Virus record (IMG/VR): IMGVR_UViG_2585427787_000002
Strand: one strand, 5' to 3'
Source: a virus
Lineage: Duplodnaviria; Heunggongvirae; Uroviricota; Caudoviricetes
Length of the DNA stretch: 13,125 nucleotides
In this document: positions 9,700 to 9,723 of the stretch, one piece after another
How the letters are laid out: the number at the start of each line of letters is the position of its first letter
Numbering within the stretch: the stretch's first letter is position 1
Translations under genes and position numbers: made by a program
The notes under the pieces: generated by a model
Database searches by the model: none
What the model was told of the DNA's origin: nothing
What the model saw: only the letters and a program-made list of their open reading frames with translations

Positions 9700-9723
9700 A
9701 AAAAAGCCCCGGATAACCGGGGC
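9700..9723 (-). terminator. Intrinsic terminator or attenuator between V and G
   Basis: On the minus strand: GCCCCGG-TTAT-CCGGGGC (7-bp GC stem, plus 9706-9723) followed directly by TTTTTT (plus A-run 9700-9705). It sits 20 nt after the V stop codon and abuts the G Shine-Dalgarno. Confidence 0.6.

Follow-up and report, generated by a model that had tools for sequence, protein, structure and literature searches.

A conserved Rho-independent terminator-type hairpin between the major tail gene V and the chaperone gene G of a lambdoid tail module

Judged from its sequence, the element at the V–G junction is a genuine Rho-independent terminator-type hairpin of the lambdoid tail module found in cdtI, mEp460, and Ayreon. 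It lies in a stretch of viral DNA of 13,125 nucleotides, the whole of which was analyzed and is called the window below. The motif itself, its non-randomness, its intergenic position on the coding strand, its conservation, and the occurrence of analogous elements in other lineages were observed directly. The hairpin is already known, and it is a member of a long-recognized pattern in which hairpins follow major capsid and tail genes. As for its role, we consider it moderately probable that the element is a conditional terminator, which would stop unmodified RNA polymerase, be read through by Q-modified polymerase, and protect the 3′ end of the V mRNA by its hairpin. The junction is composed of the following features.

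9744..10493, minus strand: major tail (tail tube) protein gene, lambda V-like, with the TAA at 9746–9744 (Pfam Phage_TTP_12, E=6e-67, plus Big_2)
9724..9743, minus strand: spacer from the V stop to the hairpin, 20 nt, unstructured, CAGGACGATACTCATCATTT
9723..9706, minus (coding) strand: terminator hairpin, with the 5′ arm GCCCCGG at 9723–9717, the loop UUAU (TTAT) at 9716–9713, and the 3′ arm CCGGGGC at 9712–9706
9705..9700, minus strand: U-tract U6 (T6), adjoining the stem with no gap
9696–9690, minus strand: Shine-Dalgarno sequence of G, GGTGGAG, 3 nt (GCA) past the U-tract
9297..9686, minus strand: tail assembly chaperone gene G (Pfam Phage_TAC_2)
9288..8959, minus strand: T frame (Pfam Phage_tail_T), just past G

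The stem consists of seven G–C pairs with a 4-nt loop, and the isolated fold has a free energy of −15.0 kcal/mol. The geometry described in the initial annotation (seven GC pairs, a 4-nt loop, six U residues, 20 nt past the V stop, and abutting the Shine-Dalgarno sequence) proved correct in every detail. Compared with the usual features of intrinsic terminators, the GC-rich stem falls within 5–14 bp and the loop within 3–8 nt, the U-tract lies within 0–2 nt 3′ of the stem on the transcribed strand, and the whole element is intergenic on the coding strand, 20 nt past the TAA within the 57-nt V–G spacer. A gap of 20 nt after a stop codon allows a hairpin to fold clear of the terminating ribosome.

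A scan of the window for terminator-like sites ranked the V–G hairpin first. When strict criteria were applied (at least seven all-GC pairs, a loop of 3–8 nt, and at least six consecutive T within 2 nt), it was the sole match in the window with both strands scanned, and no hairpin of this kind was found in any of 1000 dinucleotide-preserving shuffles of the window. The wider 91-nt fold around the hairpin was unremarkable (z = −1.14). The signal therefore comes from the hairpin locally, and this fold gave no evidence of a larger structure or of Shine-Dalgarno sequestration at the V–G junction. On the plus strand, the sequence past the hairpin reads AAATGATG, and a T-run is absent there, so the terminator-like hairpin is unidirectional. 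When the whole window was compared with Rfam at gathering thresholds, no family was reached.

Identity over the 1.2 kb around the hairpin was 99.8% with Escherichia phage Ayreon, 98% with cdtI, and 97.3% with mEp460, and the whole window was collinear with Ayreon 5351–18557. The V-like gene is labeled as the major tail protein in the Ayreon and mEp460 records, and a terminator at the V–G junction is annotated, as a computational prediction, in both mEp460 (NC_019716, 8751..8774, “rho-independent terminator”) and Ayreon (MF807953, 8742..8782). These annotations refer to the same element at the identical place, with no material difference; the mEp460 hairpin differs from that of the window by one C>U, with the pair retained as G·U. 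The V–G junction was found in 1835 of 5426 complete E. coli genomes, that is, about one-third, and the stem was intact in the copies examined. A copy of the junction in an O157:H7 prophage, located near 0.92 Mb in strain TR01, was 97% identical. E. coli-type tail modules were also seen in two metagenome-assembled genomes, one labeled “Bacillota bacterium” in GTDB (L093, G 99% identical) and the other a soil “Proteobacteria” (L096, G 94%). These two labels likely reflect contamination or mis-binning.

Several details of the flanking reading frames were also noted. The G gene opens with ATGATG (9686/9683), and GGAG lies 3 nt from the first ATG and 6 nt from the second. Since the homologues all start with MFL, and considering the Shine-Dalgarno spacing, translation of G probably starts at the second ATG, 9683, and not at 9686 as in Ayreon. 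The end of G (9297–9320, minus strand) reads CCG GAA AAG UCC UGA, and the T frame (MQFVMR...) opens just beyond it in the −1 frame. The expected G–T frameshift would thus need GGAAAAG instead of the G GGA AAG of lambda; GGAAAAG is a non-canonical slippery heptamer. The J gene (113..3528, minus strand) is split into two overlapping open reading frames, 3528..832 and 859..113. Residues 1–894 match the Ayreon J protein at 96% in one frame, while the C-terminal receptor-binding part matches at only 55% and in another frame, with homology that already begins upstream, at 919. This arrangement, with the junction near 847–919, points to a frameshift located at a recombination joint or close to it, and so to either a defective prophage or a sequencing error.

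Comparison with named phages placed the element in a wider pattern. Lambda shares the gene order Z, U, V, G, T, H, M, L, K, I, J with the module in the window. According to the initial annotation, no comparable element was known at this position in lambda, and this was confirmed, as the lambda V–G spacer is 15 nt long and contains no hairpin. Lambda does have a 7-bp hairpin with a UUCG tetraloop at 7163–7180 (1664–1681 of locus L003), 3 nt past the stop of the major capsid gene E. This E–FI hairpin has a weak U-tract, and its design is that seen at V–G, at another junction. The comparison with HK97 and N15 that had been proposed was carried out, and both phages have annotated putative terminators at the junction. 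In HK97 (NC_002167), a “putative terminator” at 7443..7462 separates the major tail gene from the chaperone gene, the latter belonging to a different sequence family; in N15 (NC_001901), a “putative rho-indep. transcription terminator” is annotated at 9596..9613 at the same junction. Both hairpins have 6-bp GC-rich stems and tetraloops, with free energies of −11.7 and −12.4 kcal/mol, respectively, and are of similar stability to that of the window. Their stem sequences are unrelated to it, and a U-tract is absent in HK97 (AUGGAUAAG) and N15 (UUCCCCCC), in contrast to the perfect U6 of the window. Because mEp460 and Ayreon annotate the very site, and HK97 and N15 have annotated terminators at the junction too, the V–G element is not new.

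To describe conservation, about 90 copies of the E. coli family were collected from IMG/VR and GTDB genomes; the search of genome contigs for G homologues used an alignment of three sequences. Further samples comprised 54 Gifsy-1-type copies and nine Providencia-group loci, eight of which (L161–168) carry a third stem type. Among 61 distinct E. coli-family haplotypes, stem variation occurred almost entirely at the loop-closing pair, either as G>A at 9717 or as C>U at 9712, which gives G·U, and the outer 6 bp were nearly invariant. In the 20-nt spacer upstream of the hairpin, 4 of the 20 sites varied among the same haplotypes. No compensatory double substitutions in the stem were found in these 61 haplotypes of the close family. 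A T-run of T5–T7 abutting the stem was present in all of the E. coli-family copies examined (about 170, with overlapping IMG/VR sets).

The stem also persists where its surroundings have diverged. The G proteins of the E. coli, Salmonella (Gifsy-1), and Citrobacter copies are 54–57% identical to each other, and the 20-nt upstream spacer of E. coli cannot be aligned with its counterparts in Salmonella or Citrobacter. In the spacer alignment of E. coli, Gifsy-1, and Citrobacter, the stem arms were the sole contiguous identical block. The stem shared by the Gifsy-1 type (L004, L106–L159) and Citrobacter (L100) with the E. coli family is GCCCCG/CGGGGC. The U-tract is degenerate or lost in Gifsy-1 (TTCTATGG, UUCUAUGG) and in Citrobacter (TTTGCGGG, UUUGCGGG); in these copies, the hairpin seems to outlive the terminator.

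Other lineages have hairpins of their own at the V–G junction. Providencia carries an unrelated stem, AGCCACA/UGUGGCU, followed by U7, and the eight IMG/VR loci L161–168 carry another, AGGUCGC/GCGGCCU, followed by U6–8 in seven loci and by U4 in L161. Because homology cannot be shown, the differences between stems across lineages were not counted as covariation; the unrelated hairpins may be independent gains instead. Over about 16 lineages, the length of the V–G spacer was bimodal, being either ≤15 nt without a hairpin or ≥34 nt and always with one. The group with a short spacer and no hairpin includes lambda, Perceval, phi80, mEp043, Stx2_95, PhiR12, Klebsiella Kp4865-4, Enterobacter MStein, and Proteus. 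Since many relatives are entirely without the element, the V–G hairpin is dispensable for tail assembly.

This dispensability would suit an evolutionary leftover, either the terminator of a lost moron or a recombination scar between the V and G modules. Lambdoid late operons tolerate terminator-flanked moron insertions, and the HK97 annotation lists gp15 as a moron product, with a putative terminator immediately following. However, the 57-nt V–G spacer holds only the hairpin and the ribosome-binding site of G, with neither the open reading frame nor the promoter of a moron. The maintenance of the stem across E. coli, Salmonella, and Citrobacter despite diverged flanks, the different hairpins at this junction in at least four other lineages, and the intact stems among the many E. 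coli genomes with the junction also speak against a leftover, which we regard as very unlikely. Even less credible, to the point of being scarcely worth entertaining, is a DNA-level palindrome serving as a site for a dimeric protein, a cruciform, or a recombination signal rather than as an RNA element. The perfect 7-bp inverted repeat with 4-bp spacing is the kind of sequence such a site would have, but the T-run is specific to the coding strand, and other lineages retain pairing and a T-run with entirely different stems. All 80 exact copies of the hairpin checked in IMG/VR occurred in one context, with the start of G next, which counts against the DNA palindrome and also excludes a mobile or dispersed palindrome, either REP/BIME-like or a terminator cassette.

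The copies in which the stem has outlasted the U-tract bear on a purely post-transcriptional explanation. Here the hairpin would not terminate transcription in its natural context; as a barrier to 3′-exonucleases or a processing landmark, it would make the V segment of the polycistronic late mRNA longer-lived. Intercistronic hairpins that stabilize mRNA are known from the REP sequence of malE–malF and from the puf operon. The V–G hairpin resembles them in being GC-rich, in separating a highly expressed cistron from lower-expressed ones downstream, and in being conserved even where the U-tract is gone; it differs from REP/BIME elements in its single genomic context and its canonical U-tract. 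Hairpins without a U-tract in HK97, N15, Gifsy-1, and Citrobacter fit a role for the RNA hairpin itself, and the U-rich single-stranded segment 3′ of the stem may be a plausible RNase E target. On the other side, the T-run next to the stem is kept throughout the E. coli family, and U4–U8 runs follow the unrelated stems of Providencia and L161–168, which argues for selection on termination as such in these lineages. A purely post-transcriptional element is therefore unlikely in our judgment. A related proposal is that the selected feature is the RNA hairpin and not termination. Such a hairpin, a 3′-end protector or a landmark for processing, would have been gained repeatedly and with unrelated stems, in five lineages or more. 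We put this forward tentatively, as a fairly unlikely but distinct possibility.

The arrangement of the late operon was then considered. In the window, there were four coding-strand spacers of at least 40 nt, and each had a terminator-like hairpin, whereas the remaining gene junctions were ≤11 nt or overlapping. In addition to that at V–G, the hairpins were as follows.

12122..12141 (hairpin 12141..12128), minus strand: sister hairpin GGCCC-GUAA-GGGCU with a T-run, 23 nt past the stop of the capsid gene
3543..3570 (hairpin 3570..3551), minus strand: sister hairpin AAACCGCC-UGCG-GGCGGUUU, then UGUCAUUU, in the 60-nt I–J spacer
70..94 (hairpin 94..75), minus strand: sister hairpin GGGCGCC-AGAA-AUGGCGCCU with T5, after the C-terminal open reading frame of J

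The open reading frame at the edge of the window encodes a capsid protein according to Pfam. A terminator after this gene is also annotated in Ayreon and mEp460, and Ayreon labels the intact gene as a ClpP protease-like/scaffold protein. The I–J sister hairpin corresponds to an annotated terminator in Ayreon (14895..14934); it is flanked by an A-run and a U-run and is of the bidirectional type. Ayreon also has an annotated terminator after J.

Promoter-like sites were fewer in the window than in its shuffles (4 vs. 7.8). The coding strand had a single weak one (9/12 matches), located inside L, and the window scan detected no credible sigma-70 promoter on the coding strand for the tail genes downstream of the hairpin. 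Eight essential genes, G, GT, H, M, L, K, I, and J, lie downstream. Having no credible promoter of their own, they need transcription through the hairpin, which therefore cannot be a full stop in lytic growth. The initial annotation had proposed a partial terminator rather than a full stop; the latter half of this proposal stands, whereas the view that the hairpin is intrinsically partial sits poorly with its possession of all the attributes of a strong terminator.

In lambdoid phages, late transcription starts at pR′, and Q renders the polymerase resistant to terminators across the late region. The Ayreon genome carries a Q antiterminator gene at 39445..40197, followed by an annotated terminator that is tR′-like by position, and further annotated terminators after the methylase, Rz, capsid, V, I, J, and lom genes. 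Its late operon thus contains at least seven further terminator-like sites. Because Q and the late promoter lie outside the 13-kb window, we infer the Q of the source genome from these relatives. With Q, a tR′-like terminator, and at least seven further sites in Ayreon, read-through is explained more simply by Q-modified polymerase.

Under the conditional terminator that we favor, polymerase unmodified by Q, arising from stray initiation in the prophage or from read-in during lysogeny, would stop at the hairpin, which would thereby provide insulation. Q-modified polymerase from the late promoter would pass the hairpin, and the downstream tail genes would be made. Despite such read-through, the hairpin would still fold in the released mRNA. 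A stable 3′ end could come from a small residual termination or from cleavage in the U-rich segment just downstream, and this protected end would shield the V message from 3′-exonucleases, so that V would be favored over G. The efficiency of termination, Q-dependent read-through at V–G, and any effect on mRNA half-life or on the V:G ratio are points that we infer from the features described above.

The role of terminators within lambdoid late operons has been discussed before. Their functions “are not known”, and the candidates offered are partial termination or the blocking of transcription begun without antitermination (PMC8022706). Transcriptomic papers on Salmonella prophages and enterohemorrhagic E. 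coli (EHEC) gave no data for the V–G junction, and the Term-seq data set of EHEC Sakai (GSE143631, cited in PMC7547250) was made on uninduced cells. In the Caulobacter gene transfer agent, an experimentally tested antiterminator passes some, but not all, polymerase at a terminator in a phage-like structural gene cluster (PMC11150451).

Partial termination, the first of these candidate roles, corresponds to a constitutively leaky intrinsic terminator, by which a fixed share of late transcripts would end after V, setting high V and low G/GT mRNA levels. The position is suggestive, as the V product is among the two proteins most abundant in the virion and the hairpin comes directly after its gene, with a sister hairpin after the capsid gene. 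HK97 and N15 likewise have hairpins after the major capsid gene as well as the major tail gene, N15 has one after the decoration gene too, and lambda has one after E. In T7 and phiX174, major structural genes are known to be followed by leaky terminators (T-phi after gene 10 in T7; TJ, TF, TG, and TH after J, F, G, and H, respectively, in phiX174). To our knowledge, a processive antiterminator of the Q type is absent from systems of the T7, phiX174, and Corndog type, where it is the terminator or the polymerase itself that is leaky. By contrast, read-through at V–G would be expected to be factor-dependent. For mycobacteriophage Corndog, a likely terminator has been predicted just to the right of the gene for the major tail subunit (PMC4351075). 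What the V–G hairpin shares with these three systems is its placement: within a longer transcription unit, a terminator directly follows a structural gene that is expressed at a very high level.

Several observations weigh against fixed leakiness. The motif is strong rather than weak, with its perfect 7-bp GC stem, tetraloop, and abutting U6, and without antitermination the eight essential downstream genes would be expected to starve, while Q is encoded by the relatives. Lambda, phi80, mEp043, Stx phages, and others have equal tail stoichiometry with a spacer of 6–15 nt and no hairpin, and many relatives, including Proteus and Klebsiella prophages, are hairpin-free. Moreover, Gifsy-1, Citrobacter, HK97, and N15 retain a hairpin without a usable U-tract. 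We therefore hold a constitutively leaky terminator to be possible but doubtful. Some attenuation is nevertheless likely, since antitermination by Q need not be 100% efficient.

A terminator hairpin with U6 is also the canonical 3′ module bound by Hfq, which raises the question of whether the 3′ end of V is the source of an Hfq-binding small RNA that ends at the hairpin and acts in trans in lysogens. Many such small RNAs are encoded in the late regions of EHEC prophages (PMC4104026, PMC7547250, PMC13502914). When Rfam was searched permissively (E up to 10, 9550–9850), the weak similarities were all to terminators of small RNAs, but these look-alikes were far below threshold: the best matches scored 9–17 bits against cut-offs of 41–112, and the best small RNA match, AsxR, scored 16.5 bits against a cut-off of 63. 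In addition, a promoter inside V was absent in the window scan, and the 20 nt upstream of the stem were not conserved outside E. coli. Such a small RNA is thus highly improbable. A link with EcOnc, HnrS, or sRNA-17 was rejected because their loci lie elsewhere, either at moron sites past the late promoter or within an intergenic stretch exceeding 1 kb. The most abundant EcOnc small RNAs are grouped at moron sites, downstream of the late promoter. For sRNA-17, from an mEp460-like prophage of E. coli RS218, the published search was directed at intergenic regions above 1 kb in length, and not at V–G (PMC7719688).

Beyond its correct annotation, the V–G hairpin is of little import and would be neither new nor surprising to phage biologists. 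If the RNA hairpin itself is the selected feature, it would raise V over G/GT mRNA where Q makes the polymerase terminator-proof, and the U-tract would be an optional add-on for insulation in lysogens. Should this be shown, a hairpin selected for its own function would answer the remark quoted above on terminators within late operons (PMC8022706). Because the module is present in about one-third of complete E. coli genomes, the V–G hairpin is a convenient natural test case for an old question, namely whether intrinsic terminators in Q-antiterminated late operons serve insulation, attenuation, or mRNA stabilization.
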